Virus record (IMG/VR): IMGVR_UViG_3300041955_000884
Location: 32,001-96,000 of that record
Direction: 5' to 3' (one strand)
DNA: 64,000 bases
Source of the DNA: a virus
Shown: positions 44,574 through 51,539 of the stretch, piece after piece
Numbering within the stretch: position 1 is the first letter of the stretch
Layout of the letters: every line of letters begins with the position of its first letter
Notes under the pieces: generated by a model
Databases searched by the model: none
What the model saw: the letters and a program-made list of their open reading frames with translations, nothing else
What the model was told of the DNA's origin: nothing
Position numbers and translations under genes: made by a program

Positions 44574-45175
44574 GGAGCCAACTCCACGTTGTGATACAGC
44601 CACGAAGCAAAATCCGCGCGTGTCTCGCTGTCAAGGAACTCCAGCCCGGCCCTGAGCAGCTCCGCCGTCGTCGGCTGCCGCGGCGGCTTCAGCGGCCGCA
44701 GGGGGGTGCCCTTCTTGCCGGAGTAGTTCGCTGGCCGGTCACGCTTCTCGACGTTGCACCTCACGCAGCAGCTCAGGATGTTGTCCCACACCGTCTGGCC
44801 GCCAGCCGCCCGCGGGATAACGTGGTCAAACGTCAGATCCTCGCTCTGGAACCGCTCGCCGCAGTACTGGCAGCGGTAGCGGTCCCGGAGGAGGATGGAG
44901 CGGCGACAGAACTTCGGCGCCGCATTGATTGGCGCGTACGACCGGAGCGCCACCACCTTCGGCACATGAATCGTGGTCGACGGCGAGCGGAACACCTCCG
45001 GCCACTCGTCCACGACGGTCACCGTCTCCTTGAAGACGGCGCGGATGGCTTCCTCGGGGCCGATAAGCGAGAGCGGCCAGGTACTTAACGGCCGAAAGTC
45101 GCTGTTCAGCACGAGACAGCGGCGCGCGTGGCGGTCGCGTCTATCAGGCTCAGCAGTGGCGACGGCGGTGCTCAT
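44570..45175 (-). CDS. HNH endonuclease at the 3' end of the tRNA array
   Basis: LVLNSDFRPL, LRDRYRCQYCG, DHVIPR..GG...WDN....C..CN..K. Confidence 0.92.
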   Translation of the reverse strand: MSTAVATAEPDRRDRHARRCLVLNSDFRPLSTWPLSLIGPEEAIRAVFKETVTVVDEWPEVFRSPSTTIHVPKVVALRSYAPINAAPKFCRRSILLRDRYRCQYCGERFQSEDLTFDHVIPRAAGGQTVWDNILSCCVRCNVEKRDRPANYSGKKGTPLRPLKPPRQPTTAELLRAGLEFLDSETRADFASWLYHNVELAP

Positions 45176-45215
45176 GCGCGGCCTCAGCGGCGAATACGTC
45201 CACTATCGCACGGAA

Positions 45216-45290
45216 TGGTGCTCTCGGGCAAGAATCGAACTGCCGTTTACCGCTTACGAGGCGGTAGTCCTGCCACTGAACGACGAGAGC
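45216..45290 (-). tRNA. tRNA-Thr(CGT)
   Basis: ACCGC-CT CGT AA-GCGGT; CCA encoded. Confidence 0.85.
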
Positions 45291-45328
45291 GTATTGAGCC
45301 GGTTAACTGGCTGCGTTATACTGCGCCT

Positions 45329-45772
45329 ATGCCCCACCGCACCAAAGAAGAAAATGTCGCTGGCGTCCTAGCATGGCGGCGCCGCGCGAAGCTGCGACTT
45401 ATCGAGGCGTTCGGTGGCGGCTGCGGCATATGCGGATATAACCGCTGCGCCGCTAACATGGCGTTCCATCATCTTGATCCGTCTCAGAAGGGCGTCGGAT
45501 TTGGAAGCGCTCAGTCTCGCTCCTGGGCGAAAGTGATACACGAGGTCAGAAAGTGCGTGATGCTGTGCCACAACTGCCACGGCGAATATCATGCCGGCCT
45601 TATCACTGACCTTTCCGCTTGCCCGCGCTTCGATGAAACGTGCGCCACCTACAGCACCCGACCAACGAAAGGGAAGACGCGGAGAACTGGAGGATTGGGA
45701 GGGAATCGAACCCGTCCTATGACGCAGATTAAGAGCCTGCCGGCCTCACCAGAGTGCCAACCAATCCGCTAG
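45329..45772 (+). CDS. HNH endonuclease, antisense within the tRNA array
   Basis: C.ICGY..C...FHHLDP..K...KC.MLC.NCH.E.H; promoter TTGAGC-N17-TATACT-N6-ATG. Confidence 0.85.
   Translation: MPHRTKEENVAGVLAWRRRAKLRLIEAFGGGCGICGYNRCAANMAFHHLDPSQKGVGFGSAQSRSWAKVIHEVRKCVMLCHNCHGEYHAGLITDLSACPRFDETCATYSTRPTKGKTRRTGGLGGNRTRPMTQIKSLPASPECQPIR
45688..45767 (-). tRNA. tRNA-Lys(CTT)
   Basis: GCAGG-CT CTT AA-TCTGC; CCA. Confidence 0.8.
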
Positions 45773-45849
45773 TGGTGCATGTCCCGAGATTCGAACTCGG
45801 CCTGTGCGGGATTTGAAGCCGCCGCCTCCTGCCTCTGGGCTAGACATGC
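45773..45849 (-). tRNA. tRNA-Leu(CAA), short variable arm (TCA register possible)
   Basis: GCGG-CTTCAAATC-CCGC; CCA. Confidence 0.6.
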
Positions 45850-45853
45850 GAAC

Positions 45854-45925
45854 TGGCCTCGCCGCCCGGATTCGAACCGGGAAGCCCAACCTTCGGAGGG
45901 TCGGGTGCAGTCCATTGCCGGCGAG
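45854..45925 (-). tRNA. tRNA-Arg(CCG)
   Basis: CGACC-CT CCG AA-GGTTG; CCA. Confidence 0.8.
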
Positions 45926-45929
45926 AAAC

Positions 45930-46000
45930 TGGTGCCCCGTGCAGGGATTCAACCTGCCGTCTTTGGCTTAGAACGCCTAGGCCGTCGCAGCGGACGGGGC
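45930..46000 (-). tRNA. tRNA-Arg(TCT), atypical
   Basis: GGC-GT TCT AA-GCC; acceptor GCCCCGT; CCA. Confidence 0.6.
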
Positions 46001-46005
46001 GAGCA

Positions 46006-46078
46006 TGGACCTCCCGGGACGAATCGGACGCCCTCATCGAGTTTCGTAGACTCAAGTCCGCAATCCAGCGGCGGGAGG
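46006..46078 (-). tRNA. tRNA-Arg(ACG)
   Basis: TGAGT-CT ACG AA-ACTCG; CCA. Confidence 0.8.
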
Positions 46079-46082
46079 AATT

Positions 46083-46157
46083 TGGGGGCGCGTGCGGGGG
46101 TCGAACCCGCCTCTCTCGGGTGAAGGCCGAGGCATCTCGCCGGAAATGTAACGCGCC
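46083..46157 (-). tRNA. tRNA-Glu(TTC)
   Basis: CTCGG-CC TTC AC-CCGAG; CCA. Confidence 0.8.
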
Positions 46158-46162
46158 GAAGT

Positions 46163-46237
46163 TGGTGGAGCTGACCGAAGTCGAATCGGTGTTACGAGAC
46201 TGCCAGCCTCGCGTCCTTGCCACTGAACGACAGCCCC
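46163..46237 (-). tRNA. tRNA-Ala(GGC)
   Basis: G3:U70; CGAGG-CT GGC AG-TCTCG; CCA. Confidence 0.85.
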
Positions 46238-46312
46238 GAAGCTGTGGTCGGCGTTTGATGCCTATATCCGCCGACACGCCCCATACATGGCAAGGGCGGC
46301 GCCTCGTCAAAC

Positions 46313-46387
46313 TGGTGAAGGGCGTTGGAATCGAACCAACCGTCTCCGCCATGTCAAGGCGGTGCTCATCCGATAAGCTGGCCCTCC
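46313..46387 (-). tRNA. tRNA-Val(GAC)
   Basis: CCGCC-TT GAC AT-GGCGG; CCA. Confidence 0.85.
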
Positions 46388-46388
46388 G

Positions 46389-46459
46389 TACCTCGCCGTC
46401 GAATCGAACGACGGTATCCGCGGTGTGAACGCGGCGCCCTGCCATTGAGCGAGCGAGGC
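46389..46459 (-). tRNA. tRNA-Val(CAC), CCA not encoded
   Basis: CCGCG-TT CAC AC-CGCGG; abuts the next tRNA. Confidence 0.8.
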
Positions 46460-46463
46460 AAAG

Positions 46464-46538
46464 TGGTCGGGGATGCAGGAATTGAACCTGCGTCGCCGCC
46501 TTCCAAGGGCGGAACCTGGGCCACTAGGCTAATCCCCG
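46464..46538 (-). tRNA. tRNA-Pro(TGG)
   Basis: CCGCC-CT TGG AA-GGCGG; CCA. Confidence 0.85.
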
Positions 46539-46542
46539 TAGA

Positions 46543-46613
46543 TGGCGCCCCCGGCTGAAATCGAATCAGCATTCCTTGGCTTAGGAAGCCAGGGCCGCTC
46601 CATCGGCGGGGGC
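46543..46613 (-). tRNA. tRNA-Arg(CCT)
   Basis: TGGC-TT CCT AA-GCCA; CCA. Confidence 0.8.
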
Positions 46614-46617
46614 AATC

Positions 46618-46695
46618 TGGTCAGCGTGCGGTGATTCGAACACCGGCTCTCGTGCGCCCGAGGCACGCGCTTTGGCCTGGCTAAGCTACACGCTG
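46618..46695 (-). tRNA. tRNA-Pro(CGG)
   Basis: CGTGC-CT CGG GC-GCACG; CCA. Confidence 0.85.
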
Positions 46696-46702
46696 TCGAA
46701 GC

Positions 46703-46778
46703 TGGCGCCCCAGACGGGTTCCGACCCCGCCAACATCGGCTTGACAAGCCGAGACCCCCGCCAGGGAGAATCTGGGGC
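46703..46778 (-). tRNA. tRNA-Asp(GTC)
   Basis: TCGGC-TT GTC AA-GCCGA; G73; CCA. Confidence 0.75.
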
Positions 46779-46782
46779 AATC

Positions 46783-46864
46783 TGGAGGACGGCGGAGGTG
46801 ACGATCCCCTTGCGGCCGGATTAAAGGTCCGGTCCAGCGCCTCGCTGGTATACGCTCGCCGTCC
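46783..46864 (-). tRNA. tRNA-Lys(TTT), atypical D arm
   Basis: CCGGA-CC TTT AA-TCCGG; CCA. Confidence 0.65.
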
Positions 46865-46869
46865 GAAAG

Positions 46870-46944
46870 TGGTTGCCGCACGCGGTACTGCCCCGCGAGC
46901 CTCTCGCTTATCGGGCGAGCGCACGACTTTCATGCTCTACGGCA
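46870..46944 (-). tRNA. tRNA-Ile(GAT)
   Basis: CTCGC-CC GAT AA-GCGAG; non-canonical T loop; CCA. Confidence 0.75.
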
Positions 46945-46945
46945 A

Positions 46946-47030
46946 TGGTGAGTTGGTGTGGTGCTGCCCCACGCGCCCGAAGGCGAAGGATTTACAGTCC
47001 TCCTGCCGGAGCTGCCGGCTTTACCAACCC
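46946..47030 (-). tRNA. tRNA-Tyr(GTA)
   Basis: GAGGA-CT GTA AA-TCCTT; variable arm; CCA. Confidence 0.8.
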
Positions 47031-47036
47031 GTGAAC

Positions 47037-47107
47037 TGGAGCCGCGTCTCGGTGTTGCGCCGAGCCTCCGTCCATACCAAGGACGGGTGCAGACTGCTGC
47101 GCGCGGC
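47037..47107 (-). tRNA. tRNA-Thr(GGT)
   Basis: CGTCC-TT GGT AT-GGACG; CCA. Confidence 0.75.
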
Positions 47108-47110
47108 AGA

Positions 47111-47198
47111 TGGTGGAAGGCCCCGAGCACGATTCGGACACCTTTCGGTGCGCACGGTTTAGCAGACCGGCCCCGCAACCTTACGGGCTGTGCCTTCC
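47111..47198 (-). tRNA. tRNA-Ser(GCT)
   Basis: CGGT-CT GCT AA-ACCG; long variable arm; CCA. Confidence 0.8.
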
Positions 47199-47204
47199 AG
47201 AAAG

Positions 47205-47294
47205 TGGCGGACGGCGGCTAGTGCTGCCCTGCAAACCCGTTGGGGTCTCATCGGTTTTCGAGGCCGAGCCGCAGACTGCTGCGGGTCACCGTCC
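47205..47294 (-). tRNA. tRNA-Ser(CGA)
   Basis: TCGG..CT CGA AA..CCGA; long variable arm; CCA. Confidence 0.75.
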
Positions 47295-47406
47295 ATGTGC
47301 GCTCCAGCGCACTGTATCGCGGCTAATGTGCTCTTGAGAGCCGATTTTGCGGGCGCCGCATTCGCTGCGGTCGTTCAAGACTGGAGGCGGAGGCCAGCCC
47401 CCATAG

Positions 47407-47494
47407 TGGCGGAGAGCGGGCGCGCACGATGCCCATGCCTTGCGGCACCAGCCGGGTTCAAACCGGCGGTCGGAACCTTCCGACTTCACTCTCC
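47407..47494 (-). tRNA. tRNA-Ser(TGA)
   Basis: GCCGG-TT TGA AC-CCGGC; variable arm; CCA. Confidence 0.8.
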
Positions 47495-47498
47495 GTAA

Positions 47499-47586
47499 TG
47501 GCGGGCGGCGGGCGCAGTCGAAGCCCTGGCCTTTCGGCCTCATCGCGCTTCCAACGCGAGCCGGCGACCCCGCCGGTTCACCGCCC
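47499..47586 (-). tRNA. tRNA-Ser(GGA)
   Basis: TCGCG-TT GGA AG-CGCGA; variable arm; CCA. Confidence 0.8.
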
Positions 47587-47590
47587 AAAC

Positions 47591-47675
47591 TGGTAGCCCA
47601 CGAAGGAGTTGCACCCTCACGCCGCGATGGCACGAGTTCCTAAGACTCGCGTGTCTGCTGTTCCACCAGTGGGCC
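47591..47675 (-). tRNA. tRNA-Leu(TAG)
   Basis: CGAGT-CT TAG GA-ACTCG; CCA. Confidence 0.85.
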
Positions 47676-47680
47676 TAACT

Positions 47681-47764
47681 TGGTACGCCCGGGGAGAGTT
47701 GCACTCCCACGTCATGCGACACAACGCCCTCAACGTTGCGCGTCTGCTGTTCCGCCACGGGCGC
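47681..47764 (-). tRNA. tRNA-Leu(GAG)
   Basis: CAACG-TT GAG GG-CGTTG; CCA. Confidence 0.85.
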
Positions 47765-47765
47765 T

Positions 47766-48275
47766 CTATTTCGGTGCTGGCCAAATGTCGGCCAGGGTCG
47801 GACGACGCTCGCCGAGGACGAGCGACAGCCTGGATTTCGAGTGCGCTGGCGCTAGGCGGTCGAGCCGTTGCGCAGGCTGGGGCACATTGGCCAACGTCGC
47901 CTCCGAGATCGGCTCGGCATATTGGCCAATCTTGTGCAGGCCCCAGGACGCCGCGACGTGGAATTCGGGCTTGCGGGAGCCAGACGGACCCGGCTTCGCC
48001 ACTGCTCTGACGCACGCCACCGCGCCCCAGCAGTGGCCGCAGGCGGCGCGGAGGTTGTTGCAGTGCCCGCAGACGAGGTGGTGCATTCTCGTGCCCGTGG
48101 GATACTCGTAGCGCCTCGTGCGCGGCAGGATGTGGTCCCGCGTGGCGCTCCGCTTGGCGTGGCCCTCGGGCAGCATCGGGTCGCCGCACTGGGGGCAGCA
48201 GACGGTCTCGCCCATCGCCTTCGCGAGGTCGAACAGGAGCAGCTTCCTCTTCGTGAAGCCCTGCGGCGCGCTCAT
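47766..48275 (-). CDS. HNH-like endonuclease within the tRNA array
   Basis: CPQCG..M, ATRDHILP, CGHCN; promoter TTGCCT-N16-TAGGCT-N6-ATG. Confidence 0.7.
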   Translation of the reverse strand: MSAPQGFTKRKLLLFDLAKAMGETVCCPQCGDPMLPEGHAKRSATRDHILPRTRRYEYPTGTRMHHLVCGHCNNLRAACGHCWGAVACVRAVAKPGPSGSRKPEFHVAASWGLHKIGQYAEPISEATLANVPQPAQRLDRLAPAHSKSRLSLVLGERRPTLADIWPAPK

Positions 48276-48313
48276 GGCGGAAGCCTACCACGCTCGGCGC
48301 CGGAGGCAAGATG

Positions 48314-48397
48314 TGGTGCCGGCGGCAGGCATCGAACCTGCACGCTGCGCGCGGCCCGGTTTAAGCGGGCTGGGTCTACCGATTCCCCCACGCCGGC
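48314..48397 (-). tRNA. tRNA-Leu(TAA)
   Basis: GCCCG-CT TAA AC-CGGGC; CCA. Confidence 0.85.
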
Positions 48398-48400
48398 GAT

Positions 48401-48475
48401 TGGTGGCGCTAGGGGGATTTGAACCCGCCCTTTCCCGGTTGAGAGCCGAGCGGCCTGCCAATAGCCGATAGCGCC
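48401..48475 (-). tRNA. tRNA-Glu(CTC)
   Basis: CTCGG-CT CTC AA-CCGGG; CCA. Confidence 0.85.
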
Positions 48476-48479
48476 GAAA

Positions 48480-48554
48480 TGGAAGCGGGTGCCCGACTCG
48501 AACGAGCGTGAAGGAGGTCAAAGCTCCCCGTCCTGGCCGCTGAACGAACCCGCC
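48480..48554 (-). tRNA. tRNA-Gln(TTG)
   Basis: GGGAG-CT TTG AC-CTCCT; CCA. Confidence 0.8.
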
Positions 48555-48559
48555 GCGAT

Positions 48560-48664
48560 TGGTAGGCGATGACGGTGCCGACCCGTCTCGAACGCCGCCA
48601 GTGCGTAAGGGACCGTCGCCCCCTGGGCCGTCGCCCGCGTTCTGCCCAGCCGGGGCAATCGCCT
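48560..48664 (-). ncRNA. tRNA-like RNA with a branched domain replacing the anticodon loop
   Basis: Acceptor AGGCGAT/ATCGCCT-A-CCA; D and T arms present; no 7-nt anticodon loop. Confidence 0.65.
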
Positions 48665-48702
48665 GCCGAGTTTCTAGCACGTCACATCCGATACCGCAAT
48701 AG

Positions 48703-48776
48703 TGGAAGCCGACCAAGGTGTCGAGCCTTGCCCGACGAGCTTCAGAGGCTCGCGTGCCCAGCCGGGGCGATCGGCC
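48703..48776 (-). tRNA. tRNA-Gln(CTG)
   Basis: CGAGC-CT CTG AA-GCTCG; CCA. Confidence 0.8.
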
Positions 48777-48779
48777 GAA

Positions 48780-48858
48780 TGGTGCTCCTGGCCGCGATTC
48801 GAACGGGCGACCCCCGGGATACAAAGCCGGTGCTCTGGCCAGACTGAGCTACAGGAGC
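48780..48858 (-). tRNA. tRNA-Thr(TGT)
   Basis: CCGG..TT TGT AT..CCGG; canonical D/T arms; CCA. Confidence 0.8.
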
Positions 48859-48859
48859 T

Positions 48860-48936
48860 TGGGGTGACATGCCGGTACCGCCCCGGCCCAAACTGGGCTC
48901 ACAACCCAGCGCAATCGCTTGCCTGCCCATGTCACC
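48860..48936 (-). tRNA. tRNA-His(GTG)
   Basis: G-1:C73; CTGGG-TT GTG AG-CCCAG; CCA. Confidence 0.8.
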
Positions 48937-48944
48937 ATACGCAA

Positions 48945-49323
48945 TCCATCCCGTCGCATCTATGCTCGCCTCGGTGTTACCCGTGGCTAGCCGTATCGCA
49001 CGGCGAACGGGAGCCGGGGCTACCGTCTGTTTCAACGGTGTCGCCGGAGAGGTTTCGAGCCGGCATCGCTATGCTACGGCGGCATCGAAGACGGCTTGCC
49101 GCCGGCGGAGGGGTTAATCCCGCGCATCACCACCCTGGGTCGGGCTCCGCAATCCCCTGATGACTTAGCCGCTTCGCCGCCGGTTCCATGCCCAGCGCCG
49201 CTCGAAAGCTCCCTGCGGGCTAGCCTCGGCGCGCATCCGAAGCCAAGCTGGGCCAGCCTTAGAACCACCGCAGCGCTGGCCCGTCGCCCGCGTGGAAGGC
49301 TTCGCGTCTGTCCGCGATGCCGC
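48945..49323 (-). ncRNA. Large structured ncRNA, possibly GOLLD-like
   Basis: About 380 nt with no credible ORF; many helices including GCGGCATCG/CGATGCCGC long-range pairing. Confidence 0.6.
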
Positions 49324-49330
49324 AGGAAGG

Positions 49331-49406
49331 TGGAGAAGCGCCACAGAGTCGAACTGCGTGATGCGGGGTTGCAATCCGCCACCCAAGGCCGTCGGGTTCG
49401 CGCTTC
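49331..49406 (-). tRNA. tRNA-Cys(GCA)
   Basis: GCGG..TT GCA AC..CCGC; U73; CCA. Confidence 0.8.
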
Positions 49407-49411
49407 AATCT

Positions 49412-49485
49412 TGGCAGGGGCGTGAGGAATTGGACCCCATCTAGCTGGGTTGGAGCCAGCCGTGCTGCCGTAACACTTCGCCCCC
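49412..49485 (-). tRNA. tRNA-Trp(CCA)
   Basis: GCTGG-CT CCA AC-CCAGC; CCA. Confidence 0.85.
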
Positions 49486-49489
49486 AAGT

Positions 49490-49564
49490 TGGCTCCAGAG
49501 GCAGGACTTGAACCTGCAACCTCACGGTTAACGGCCGTTTGCTCAGCCATTGAGCTACTCTGGA
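49490..49564 (-). tRNA. tRNA-Asn(GTT)
   Basis: ACGG-CC GTT AA-CCGT; CCA. Confidence 0.85.
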
Positions 49565-49683
49565 AAACTCGTCTGGCGCTCGGCCCTCTCGGGCCAGACT
49601 TTCCGGGCTACCCACCAGCGCGTTGCCATGGCTCGCTGGCCTCTATCCGTTATGGACTCGGGGTGACCGAGTCACGCCATGCT

Positions 49684-49759
49684 TGGAGCGGGATGCCGGG
49701 GACGATCCGAGCTTCACTGGTTTGGAAGACCAGCACAGTTACCGAACTGCAAATCCCGC
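49684..49759 (-). tRNA. tRNA-Gly(TCC)
   Basis: CTGGT-CT TCC AA-ACCAG; U73; CCA. Confidence 0.8.
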
Positions 49760-50334
49760 GAAATGGTGCCAGCGCCTGGTTTCGCGCCAGGGTCTTCGCT
49801 TTTTCGGAGCGACGCTTCCACTAGGTTAGCTTCGCTGGCCATTGGCAGGGAAGTCCACGCCTTGCCGAGCTTGATGCGGCTTATCATGTCCTCCGTCACG
49901 CGAAAACTTGTTGCTATCGAACGGCCAGTTCGGCCAGATGCCAGGAAGCGGCGAATCTCATGCACATCACGCTCCGACAGCTTAGCGTTTCCATTTGACG
50001 CCCCCACGGAGGGCGGCAGGTTGCCCTTCGGGCGACGCCCCTTCCTGGCACTGTCCCGCATATTTTCGGCGTTCGTTCCGAGCCACAGGTGACGCGGATT
50101 GCAGCAGGGCGGGTTGTCGCAAGAATGGCAGACGCAAAGGCCGCAGGTCGGTCCCTTCGCTATCTCGTAAGCGACGGCATGTGCCCGCCGAGAGCGGAGC
50201 GTTGGCCTGCTTTGCTTGAACCGACCGTACCCGTCATCGTCAATCTGGCGAGTCCACGGCCAGCACTCGTCAGGCCCGCGGATGTCAACCTTTGACCAAA
50301 AGCGCGCAATCGCCTTATCGTCGTGAATAGCCAT
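49714..50334 (-). CDS. HNH homing endonuclease whose ORF reads into tRNA-Phe and tRNA-Gly
   Basis: RFWSKVD...CWPW, AH..AY, CHSCDNP.CCNP.HL.LGT..EN; GAGGAG SD. Confidence 0.9.
   Translation of the reverse strand: MAIHDDKAIARFWSKVDIRGPDECWPWTRQIDDDGYGRFKQSRPTLRSRRAHAVAYEIAKGPTCGLCVCHSCDNPPCCNPRHLWLGTNAENMRDSARKGRRPKGNLPPSVGASNGNAKLSERDVHEIRRFLASGRTGRSIATSFRVTEDMISRIKLGKAWTSLPMASEANLVEASLRKSEDPGAKPGAGTISRDLQFGNCAGLPNQ
49764..49839 (-). tRNA. tRNA-Phe(GAA)
   Basis: TCGCT-CC GAA AA-AGCGA; CCA. Confidence 0.85.
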
Positions 50335-50432
50335 ATCGGCCGTCTCCTCGGCTGGCGTGGTCAGGACCGCCGGGGCGTTCACAGCGCTCCGGCGGCCCGA
50401 GATTTCTAGTCGAAATGTCCAGCCGAAGCAAT

Positions 50433-50504
50433 TGGTTGCAGGGGAGCGAGTCGCACGCTCTGTGGAAAATTTATGAGACTTTCTGGCCTCTGAGGCTCCC
50501 TGCA
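50433..50504 (-). tRNA. tRNA-Met/Ile2(CAT)
   Basis: AAAGT-CT CAT AA-ATTTT; CCA. Confidence 0.7.
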
Positions 50505-50509
50505 ATAAC

Positions 50510-50583
50510 TGGTGGGCGCGCGACGAATCGGACGCCGGTCAAGCCTTTATGAGAGGCTCGCTCTTCCATTGAGCTACACGCCC
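50510..50583 (-). tRNA. tRNA-Ile2/Met(CAT)
   Basis: AGCCT-CT CAT AA-AGGCT; CCA. Confidence 0.8.
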
Positions 50584-50596
50584 GTCGCGTGGAATT

Positions 50597-50671
50597 TGGA
50601 GCTGACGCCCGGTACCGCCCCGGGTGATACTGATTGGCAACCAGTCCCGCAACCTTTCGCGGACCGCCAGC
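50597..50671 (-). tRNA. tRNA-Gly(GCC)
   Basis: ACTGG-TT GCC AA-TCAGT; U73; CCA. Confidence 0.75.
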
Positions 50672-50733
50672 TAAGACATGAACGAATCTCGCCCGACCTG
50701 GCGACGACACGGCCAGGTCGGGCATTCGTGAAA

Positions 50734-50808
50734 TGGTGGAGGCGCGGATAGTCGAAATCCGAGACAGCAATCTTGCAAGGATAGCCCGCTGGTCCGCAGC
50801 TCGCCCCC
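50734..50808 (-). tRNA. tRNA-Ala(TGC)
   Basis: G3:U70; CT TGC AA loop; CCA. Confidence 0.75.
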
Positions 50809-50860
50809 GTCGGGCCGCTTGGCAGGCGGCCCGTAGTCATGTGGACGTATTCACAGCCTC

Positions 50861-50898
50861 AAAGAACAAAAGCCCCCGAGAGTTTCCTCCGGGGGCTT
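50861..50898 (-). terminator. Intrinsic terminator (attenuator) upstream of the tRNA array
   Basis: AAGCCCCCGGAG-GAAA-CTCTCGGGGGCTT followed by TTGTTCTTT. Confidence 0.85.
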
Positions 50899-50934
50899 GG
50901 TCGTGTACGCTTCCACAGTCAAAGCCAGAAGCGG

Positions 50935-51057
50935 TTACAAGGCCAAGCCCTCGGCGTTCGGCTGATGCGTCGCGGACTTCCCGCCCAAGCTACGCCGCAC
51001 GGTGGGTTTTATGCCGCGTCGTTCGGCGTAGCCAGGAAAGGAGGTCCAGAGTGACAT
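50935..51057 (-). CDS. Putative leaderless leader peptide (40 aa) of the tRNA-array attenuator
   Basis: MSLWTSFPGYAERRGIKPTVRRSLGGKSATHQPNAEGLAL*; last codons and stop lie inside the antiterminator. Confidence 0.65.
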   Translation of the reverse strand: MSLWTSFPGYAERRGIKPTVRRSLGGKSATHQPNAEGLAL

Positions 51058-51064
51058 CGCTGCC

Positions 51065-51094
51065 CTTATGCGGGCGGCGGCGGGGGCGTGTCAA
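51065..51094 (-). promoter_or_regulatory. sigma70-like promoter of the tRNA array
   Basis: TTGACA-N18-CATAAG-N7-ATG. Confidence 0.7.
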
Positions 51095-51539
51095 GCCCTG
51101 AATCGCACCGGAGCGGCGCGTTCGCGATTTCGAGGAGGACGGTGGCGTGGCATGCTTGGTCCAGGCGGCACCAGCAGGCGAGGTCCTTGCCGCGAAGTTC
51201 GCGGCGCACATCATCAATGGTTGTCGCGTCCATGCTGGGAATTTTTCCTTTTGGCCATGGGAGCGCAACAGGAATCCACGCGCCTTCCTTGGCGAGCATC
51301 GAGCGGAACGCAGCAACCGCCAGTTGGGCGTCCATTGGAAAGCGCTGCCCATTCTGCATGCGATCAGAATGAACGACGAACGGATTGCCCCACTTCGATC
51401 CGCGTCCGACGTAGACGGCTCCCTCTGGCATCCGCCAGCCCTTCGTCCGGCGCCGCTGGATTCGCCGTGGAGCGAAGGCGCAGACGCGGGCCTCACGGCA
51501 GCGCGCTGGCCCTGGGCAGTAGTCGCATGCCTCGGTCAT
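51066..51539 (-). CDS. DUF4326-family protein
   Basis: VYVGRGSKWGNPF...ELRGKDLACWC...CHA.VL. Confidence 0.85.
   Translation of the reverse strand: MTEACDYCPGPARCREARVCAFAPRRIQRRRTKGWRMPEGAVYVGRGSKWGNPFVVHSDRMQNGQRFPMDAQLAVAAFRSMLAKEGAWIPVALPWPKGKIPSMDATTIDDVRRELRGKDLACWCRLDQACHATVLLEIANAPLRCDSGLDTPPPPPA

Follow-up and report, generated by a model that had tools for sequence, protein, structure and literature searches.

A folded leader with a terminator and a competing structure probably gates transcription of a large phage tRNA array

What decides whether a phage that carries a large array of transfer RNA (tRNA) genes transcribes them? Such arrays are usually discussed as aids to codon usage, or as substitutes for host tRNAs that degradation or anticodon nucleases have removed, and to our knowledge the control of their expression has hardly been described. 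The question is raised here by a stretch of 64,000 nucleotides (nt), called the window below, which corresponds to bases 32001-96000 of the IMG/VR virus record IMGVR_UViG_3300041955_000884 (107,197 bases in total, estimated to be 94% complete, with a G+C content of about 65%); unless a relative is named, all coordinates are those of the window. On its minus strand a promoter, a heavily folded leader of 195 bases and a terminator with a competing structure stand before about 30 tRNA genes, and a switch at the level of transcription probably gates their production.

A switchable terminator ahead of the array

The elements of the leader, in the order in which they would be transcribed, are the following.

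51065-51094, minus strand: sigma-70-type promoter, read from the sequence as TTGACA (51094-51089), an 18-nt spacer and CATAAG (51070-51065)
50935-51057, minus strand: open frame of 40 codons, with its ATG at the predicted +1 (leaderless if translated) and its stop TAA at 50937-50935
50961-51060, minus strand: P1, a long imperfect hairpin over frame codons 1-33 (-48.2 kcal/mol, z -4.60)
50943-50956, minus strand: 5′ strand of the antiterminator, equal to frame codons 34-38, of which 12/14 positions pair with 50900-50887 in the nascent RNA
50893-50950, minus strand: P2, a hairpin whose base is the antiterminator helix (-27.1 kcal/mol, z -3.40)
50861-50900, minus strand: intrinsic terminator (-23 to -24.8 kcal/mol, z -3.82)

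No other hairpin with a T run on this strand of the 107-kb genome is as strong as the terminator; its stem, formed by 50897-50887 with 50882-50871, has 11 bp, one bulged U and a GAAA loop, and its U tract occupies 50871-50861. The whole of its 5′ arm (50900-50887) is common to the antiterminator. The strength of this second pairing was compared with that obtained from dinucleotide shuffles of the upstream bases, six other terminators of the genome being treated identically as controls. With the 60 upstream nt the arm pairs at -17.7 kcal/mol, against -5.1±2.7 in shuffles (0/300 as good; z -4.6), and with all 157 upstream bases at -14.7 against -4.8±2.5 kcal/mol (1/500 shuffles). None of the six control terminators displayed excess antiterminator pairing (z -0.6 to +0.9).

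The remainder of the leader is also strongly structured. In a transcript starting at the A of the ATG only the first 6 nt are unpaired before P1 begins, and none of 200 shuffles of this 100-nt element was equally stable; within P2, inner helices are formed by 50939-50936 with 50907-50904 and by 50933-50928 with 50913-50908. Folds of the whole leader are isoenergetic, at -85.7 kcal/mol with the terminator enforced and -85.8 kcal/mol with the antiterminator enforced. A different comparison of alternative folds, in which the outer four terminator pairs are disabled, is uninformative, most weak terminator-like sites of this GC-rich genome having isoenergetic alternatives. The minimum-energy fold of a nascent RNA ending at 50886 contains the antiterminator, while masking a ribosome-sized segment at the stop codon (50952-50922) leaves the terminator as the fold. 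On these grounds we take the terminator to be designed for two states.

Much of this architecture had been proposed in the initial annotation, made from the letters alone, and could be confirmed. The TTGACA-N18-CATAAG promoter and the ATG at 51057 read as claimed, as does the 40-codon frame (51057-50935) with its 31 distinct codons and 18 amino acids, C and D being absent. The segment GGGCTTGG at 50950-50943 is complementary to CCAAGCCC at 50900-50893, and both inner helices, TGTA/TACA and CGCTTC/GAAGCG, are present; the folding of both conformers that it had called for revealed the isoenergetic pair given above and an antiterminator longer than first noted (the 12/14 positions). The terminator was rightly called strong, being the best on its strand, and the first tRNA, placed about 50 nt further on, has its start 53 nt beyond the U tract. 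Two features had gone unremarked there, namely the P1 hairpin and the overlap of the promoter with a protein gene.

The promoter is contained in the 3′ tail of the protein gene that immediately precedes the leader:

51066-51431, minus strand: DUF4326 gene (Pfam PF14216, E 2.6e-25)

The stop codon of this gene (TAA, 51068-51066) falls within the -10 element, and CATAAG is followed after 7 nt by the ATG at 51057, which gives a predicted +1 at 51058/51057. A stricter consensus promoter scan omits this promoter, its -10 being without the final T. The same arrangement recurs: GCTTGACA-N18-CATA(A/G)G is found at the syntenic site in two relatives, L124 and L261, 9 nt ahead of a tRNA-Met. L124 is the closest syntenic relative (its portal protein is 89% identical) and L261 is identical to it over the stretch from promoter to tRNA; in L124 a methyltransferase-like gene is followed by a small unrelated ORF (open reading frame), GCTTGACA, 18 nt, CATAGG and the single tRNA-Met, again with a stop codon within the -10. 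An intergenic copy of the motif also occurs in an unrelated phage (L262). This recurrence supports the promoter and a start predicted at about 51058/51057.

Several further features of these relatives may be noted. The two unrelated upstream proteins, that of DUF4326 (window 51066-51115, minus strand) and that of the ORF of about 70 residues in L124 (L124 9765-9806), share a similar ten-residue tail, [A/G]LD[K/T]P...P[S/A], because both ORFs read through the same promoter DNA. After the single tRNA-Met a second promoter, TTGACA-N17-AATAAA, is followed by protein genes (L124 9780-9950, L261 5380-5510). The genomes of L124 and L261 are estimated by CheckV at about 45-60 kb, compared with 107 kb here, and the presence of one tRNA-Met in these smaller relatives therefore suggests that the array of about 30 genes and its leader are a lineage-specific gain.

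Transcription across the locus is glimpsed in the metatranscriptome library X7, where a 448-nt contig (depth 10.4) spans 51044-50597 without differences; it starts 13 nt past the ATG and runs across the terminator and tRNA-Ala, and the sole DUF4326 contig of the same run has a depth of 4.2. This is a weak hint that fits both a start near the ATG and genuine read-through. Between the terminator and tRNA-Ala the consensus scan listed no promoter on the minus strand and none was convincing by eye; the first tRNAs therefore depend on read-through. Taken with the terminator and its competing helix, we consider it likely that a switchable or tuned terminator gates the tRNA operon.

What would work the switch

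The working model that we draw from this layout is as follows. Transcription from a host-type promoter at 51094-51065 would begin at about 51058/51057, and the initial ~195 nt of the RNA would fold into P1, P2 and the terminator. When the terminator 5′ arm pairs with its own 3′ arm, transcription would end and a leader RNA of ~195 nt would be released; when it pairs instead with 50956-50943 at the base of P2, antitermination would follow, and polymerase would read on through tRNA-Ala into the remaining genes of the array. The antiterminator would be transcribed first and without a competing upstream partner, so that the untouched RNA should favour at least partial read-through, and any agent covering 50956-50943 would favour termination. 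The likeliest such agent would be a ribosome translating the leaderless 40-codon frame, since a ribosome that finishes the frame would mask the strand of codons 34-38 while one that is absent or held upstream would not; the stop codon lies 6 nt beyond this strand. We judge somewhat short of even the chances that translation of the frame is the input of the attenuator, and the direction of control is one that we infer. If translation is indeed the input, the element would couple the provision of phage tRNAs directly to the condition of the host decoding machinery.

A bolder version, in which the frame serves as a general gauge of translation, takes up the central idea of the initial annotation. 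Slow decoding at almost any of the roughly 30 varied codons that precede the antiterminator, or the failure of ribosomes to initiate, would then free the antiterminator and open the whole array of about 30 tRNA genes. Were this true, it would constitute an automatic phage answer to tRNA-cleaving defences or to a collapse of the host tRNA pool, but we regard it as rather unlikely. The codon composition on which it was built is not exceptional. The 31 distinct codons compare with 28.6±2.0 in shuffles of the frame, 16% of which reach 31, and with 28.0±2.3 in open 120-nt windows of array DNA; 40-codon windows of real genes contain 23.7±2.6, and it is only against these, which are strongly codon-biased here, that the frame stands out. 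Nor do rare codons, from a set fixed beforehand as those below 6.2 per 1000 in long genes, mark it as designed, with 11/40 in the frame, 8.7±2.3 in shuffles and 2.8±1.9 in real genes. A count of 12 codons read by array tRNAs among the last 14 was made by hand and post hoc (binomial p ~0.06) and was not used. As the frame matches non-coding sequence on all codon measures, the supposed codon sampling is what non-coding sequence yields, and its codon diversity is no evidence of a designed codon sampler.

The ribosome-mediated model as a whole has to be set against a number of observations that weigh against it. With regard to the frame itself, its rare codons are at the level of shuffled sequence, as just given; its codon-usage log-odds of -0.025, against 0.37±0.22 for real genes, carry no coding signature; its length is unremarkable in a genome with 993 ORFs of at least 40 codons in six frames at 65% GC; and array tRNAs read 24/40 of its codons, against 25.4±2.9 in shuffles (p 0.75). 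It is thus unlike the mini-ORFs of Caulobacter phage phiCbK, discussed below, in having no enrichment in codons of the tRNAs behind it. A near-length search of a collection of 5.8 billion clusters returned no protein sharing words with the 40-residue peptide. Forty codons are long for a leader peptide, and P1 (-48 kcal/mol), which starts 6 nt past the AUG, should be an obstacle to leaderless initiation and has no role in the ribosome model; a transcript starting at the ATG carries no Shine-Dalgarno sequence, and initiation would have to be leaderless. That the frame is translated is likewise something we infer.

With regard to the RNA and its relatives, there is no anti-antiterminator, the pairing of 50956-50941 with upstream RNA being at chance (z +0.3). 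The attenuation geometry claimed at the outset holds for the frame, whose ATG stands at the predicted +1 and whose stop codon is placed just past the 5′ strand of an antiterminator that is beyond chance; a 1:2 anti-antiterminator and regulatory codons are absent. A blastn search (word size 7, query 51100-50809) against about 260 fetched loci, comprising the neighbours of DUF4326, exonuclease, portal and methyltransferase-like relatives in IMG/VR together with DUF4326 relatives in metagenome contigs, produced no homologous leader, only chance matches. In L124 both leader and terminator are absent between the promoter and tRNA-Met. Lastly, what X7 contributes are assembled metatranscriptome contigs in which DNA is possibly present.

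Other searches for related loci gave similar results. The exact terminator sequence had 0 matches in IMG/VR, in the loci of relatives no tRNA array stood behind the homologous gene, and portal relatives at 89-90% identity carry at most one tRNA.

Of the alternatives, the one that survives best retains the same terminator and antiterminator and removes translation from the model. The terminator could be tuned to leak, or a protein or RNA could bind P1, P2 or 50956-50943, or a processive antitermination factor could act, the frame being incidental in each case; this is doubtful in our view, though it deserves serious consideration. It would account for a frame that resembles non-coding sequence in codon diversity, rare codons, usage and array match, and for P1 and P2 having z-scores (-4.6 and -3.4) expected of a functional RNA rather than of a coding region. 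Isoenergetic folds alone would give partial termination, and the layout, in which a promoter and a terminated RNA of ~195 nt precede the regulated genes, is that of the PR′-6S RNA-tR′ region of lambda. The candidate factor that it needs was not found: the Q-type antiterminator models PF06530 and PF03589 had 0 matches in the 107-kb record, a search that divergent factors would escape, and PF06323 was also without a match there but its positive control gave no signal. In Rfam, searched over 44800-51400 at E up to 1, only tRNA-type matches were obtained and no riboswitch, T-box or other leader family (none at gathering score in the window). P1 shares no strand with the antiterminator, so a ligand of P1 lacks an obvious route to flip the switch, and an ATG at +1 opening a frame that ends just past the antiterminator strand would be a coincidence of roughly 1-3%, by an after-the-fact estimate.

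It is improbable that the leader is an independent small-RNA gene whose stable product of ~195 nt acts elsewhere, transcription of the tRNAs being mere leakage. The locus is a discrete unit from promoter to terminator with three very stable hairpins and a strong terminator, and trans-acting RNAs derived from attenuators are known (rnTrpL, PMC6614838). The significant antiterminator would be purposeless in such a gene, no promoter-like site was found between the terminator and tRNA-Ala, the X7 contig passes through the terminator, and in L124 the homologous promoter stands immediately ahead of a tRNA that it drives. The leader is complementary to the array tRNAs over no more than 8-9 nt, at chance level, and no above-chance target was seen in the rest of the genome either.

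The last alternative, that the frame encodes a real 40-residue protein translationally coupled to DUF4326 with the operon terminator 38 nt on and the array expressed from elsewhere, draws on a frame beginning 8 nt after the DUF4326 stop with AAGGG ahead of its ATG, and on a typical distance from stop to terminator, but is very improbable given that no tested real-gene window reached 11 rare codons (11/40 here against 2.8±1.9), that no homologue of the peptide was found, that the conserved promoter and the boundary of the X7 contig speak for transcription starting at the ATG, with AAGGG then outside the transcript, and that the antiterminator excess would go unexplained.

The array and its genome setting

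The features of the array and of the gap before it are given below.

45216-50808, minus strand: array of 28-30 tRNA genes, among which protein ORFs are embedded (25 found by ARAGORN, 3 added by Rfam, 2 marginal under relaxed ARAGORN)
50811-50831, minus strand: GC-rich hairpin predicted by folding, with a perfect 7-bp stem and the 7-nt loop CUGCCAA, ending 2 nt before tRNA-Ala
50808-50734, minus strand: tRNA-Ala(TGC), first of the array (ARAGORN), with a G3:U70 pair and an encoded CCA
50334-49714, minus strand: HNH_3 endonuclease ORF inside the array (E 4.7e-07)
49839-49767, minus strand: Phe-GAA tRNA (Rfam)
47294-47209, minus strand: Ser-CGA tRNA (Rfam)
47198-47115, minus strand: Ser-GCT tRNA (Rfam)

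The two marginal tRNAs are Asp and Arg-ACG. The array had initially been described as 39 tRNAs making up a complete replacement set, figures that have to be reduced to the 28-30 genes found, among which ARAGORN, relaxed ARAGORN and Rfam located no Tyr and no Cys tRNA. A Gly-GCC tRNA is not in the array either, though GGC occurs four times in the leader frame. The loop CUGCCAA of the hairpin before tRNA-Ala is laid out like an anticodon loop, with U second, then GCC, then a purine, but a whole tRNA would not fit. The frame of the HNH_3 ORF overlaps the coordinates of tRNA-Phe and tRNA-Gly.

Two sites within the array could subdivide it. In the 75-nt gap between tRNA-Val(GAC) and tRNA-Ala(GGC), at 46238-46312 on the minus strand, TTGACG-N17-TGTATG may be an internal array promoter, as judged from its sequence. 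At about 45354-45400 (minus strand), between tRNA-Lys and the last tRNA-Thr, the array strand has its sole other terminator-like hairpin followed by a T run (-16.9 kcal/mol), and the final tRNA (Thr) may lie outside the main unit.

The genes leading towards the array on the same strand, in gene order, are:

55185-53479, minus strand: glycosyltransferase gene, first in the order
53620-52751, minus strand: GIY-YIG endonuclease gene
52240-51539, minus strand: phrog_3816 methyltransferase-like gene

These are followed by DUF4326, the leader and the array, after which the minus-strand order continues with an HNH endonuclease, a GDSL lipase and a repair exonuclease. Homing-type endonucleases both flank and interrupt the tRNA array, namely HNH at 45175-44570, GIY-YIG at 53620-52751 and the HNH_3 inside. 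The DUF4326 product was searched as a 143-residue query: a database protein of 121 residues (P0001) is 100% identical to it, the query beginning 22 residues upstream of that protein, and eight relatives (P0002-P0009) are 69-78% identical. DUF4326 homologues align to residues ~10-127 only, the tail of 16 residues being non-conserved.

Near-identical DNA was found in metagenomes from wetland, peat, lake and soil. Runs X3 and X7 contain zero differences within the leader. A variant phage is represented in DNA run X11 by contigs that agree with the window as far as ~51113 and ~50708-50741 and diverge past these points. They leave 50791-51113 uncovered, a gap that does not count as evidence that the leader is missing, and strains may thus exchange promoter, leader and tRNA-Ala as one mosaic module. 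A portal search of bacterial genomes gave no prophage relative that would point to a host.

Comparison with known systems

The leaders trpL, hisL, thrL and ilvL are leader-peptide (ribosome-mediated) transcription attenuators of amino-acid operons. Leaders of the trp/his type resemble the one described here in having a short promoter-proximal frame, a terminator before the regulated genes and an antiterminator that shares a strand of the terminator, as well as a stop codon at which a terminating ribosome would sit over the 5′ strand of the antiterminator, a likeness that in our case is one of geometry only. They differ in that tRNAs and not enzymes are the regulated genes here, and in that the frame would be leaderless if translated, contains no run of regulatory codons and has a 100-nt hairpin within it. 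With no 1:2 anti-antiterminator, moreover, the untranslated RNA would here read through and not terminate.

In lambda PR′-6S RNA-tR′ with antitermination by Q, a constitutive promoter yields a short terminated RNA (~190 nt) and the genes downstream need read-through. The likeness lies in a short terminated RNA followed by genes reached by read-through of its terminator; in contrast to our locus, lambda is without a competing antiterminator helix and targets late protein genes, and a Q-like protein was not found here.

Upstream ORFs (uORFs) that answer ribosome stalling of various kinds have been published, so that the statement with which the initial annotation set off its proposal, that known attenuators sense a single amino acid, is not supported: toiL of the Escherichia coli topAI-yjhQ operon is a uORF that responds when ribosomes stall in many different ways (PMC12121999), and vmlR is controlled by an antibiotic-responsive attenuator (PMC9226507). 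Their logic is that of the general translation-stress switch put forward in the initial annotation: a ribosome held at any of several positions in a short upstream frame refolds the leader, and the genes downstream are turned on. Unlike our leader, toiL works via occlusion of a ribosome-binding site and Rho, not via an intrinsic terminator, and the targets of toiL and vmlR are a toxin-antitoxin system or resistance genes; both, in contrast to the candidate leader described here, are experimentally supported. Leaderless short ORFs acting as attenuators have been reported in mycobacteria (bioRxiv 10.1101/834739).

The nearest case in print is an array controlled by a repressor. Anabaena PCC 7120 holds a silent tRNA operon that is induced by translational stress (PMC8421152) under the repressor TrcR (PMC10272220). 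As proposed for our phage, a large accessory tRNA array is kept low and comes on when translation is impaired; the Anabaena array differs in being located on a cellular megaplasmid and in using a ribbon-helix-helix repressor at the promoter, with no leader RNA. Many-stalling uORFs, leaderless uORF attenuators and a stress-induced tRNA array are therefore already known, while their phage tRNA setting was not found in print. The expectation of the initial annotation that such a regulator had not been described for phage tRNA arrays agrees with our full-text searches, which gave no terminator/antiterminator leader before phage tRNA genes.

The closest counterpart among phages is offered by Caulobacter phage phiCbK (JX100813; locus L264, 47000-52800), in which the depositors annotated rho-independent terminators directly before three tRNA blocks. 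Ahead of each terminator stands a short frame in which codons read by the block behind are in excess (p 0.048, 0.0006 and 0.013), and one of the cassettes reads CTTGACA-N17-TAGGGT-N7-ATG, its spacing from -10 to ATG being as here. The first cassette has its frame stop in the terminator loop, where a ribosome could block the terminator directly. Excess antiterminator pairing is absent at 2/3 of the phiCbK terminators and marginal at the third, and an attenuator reading of these cassettes was not found in print.

The phiCbK cassettes and our locus both have a GCTTGACA promoter of host type, whose -10 is followed after about 7 nt by an ATG, and then, all on the same strand, a short frame, a terminator and tRNA genes; the leaders are without sequence similarity, and the antiterminator pairing, unlike in phiCbK, is strong here. 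As the phiCbK cassettes have the better evidence of a translated sensor, they raise the prior for the ribosome-mediated model at our locus. Were the frame described here a general gauge, it would be the generalist counterpart of the phiCbK mini-ORFs, which are block-specific, an interpretation to which we attach little probability. Taken together, the leader described here and the codon-matched mini-ORFs of phiCbK lead to a concrete claim, namely that phages meter tRNA synthesis by attenuation.

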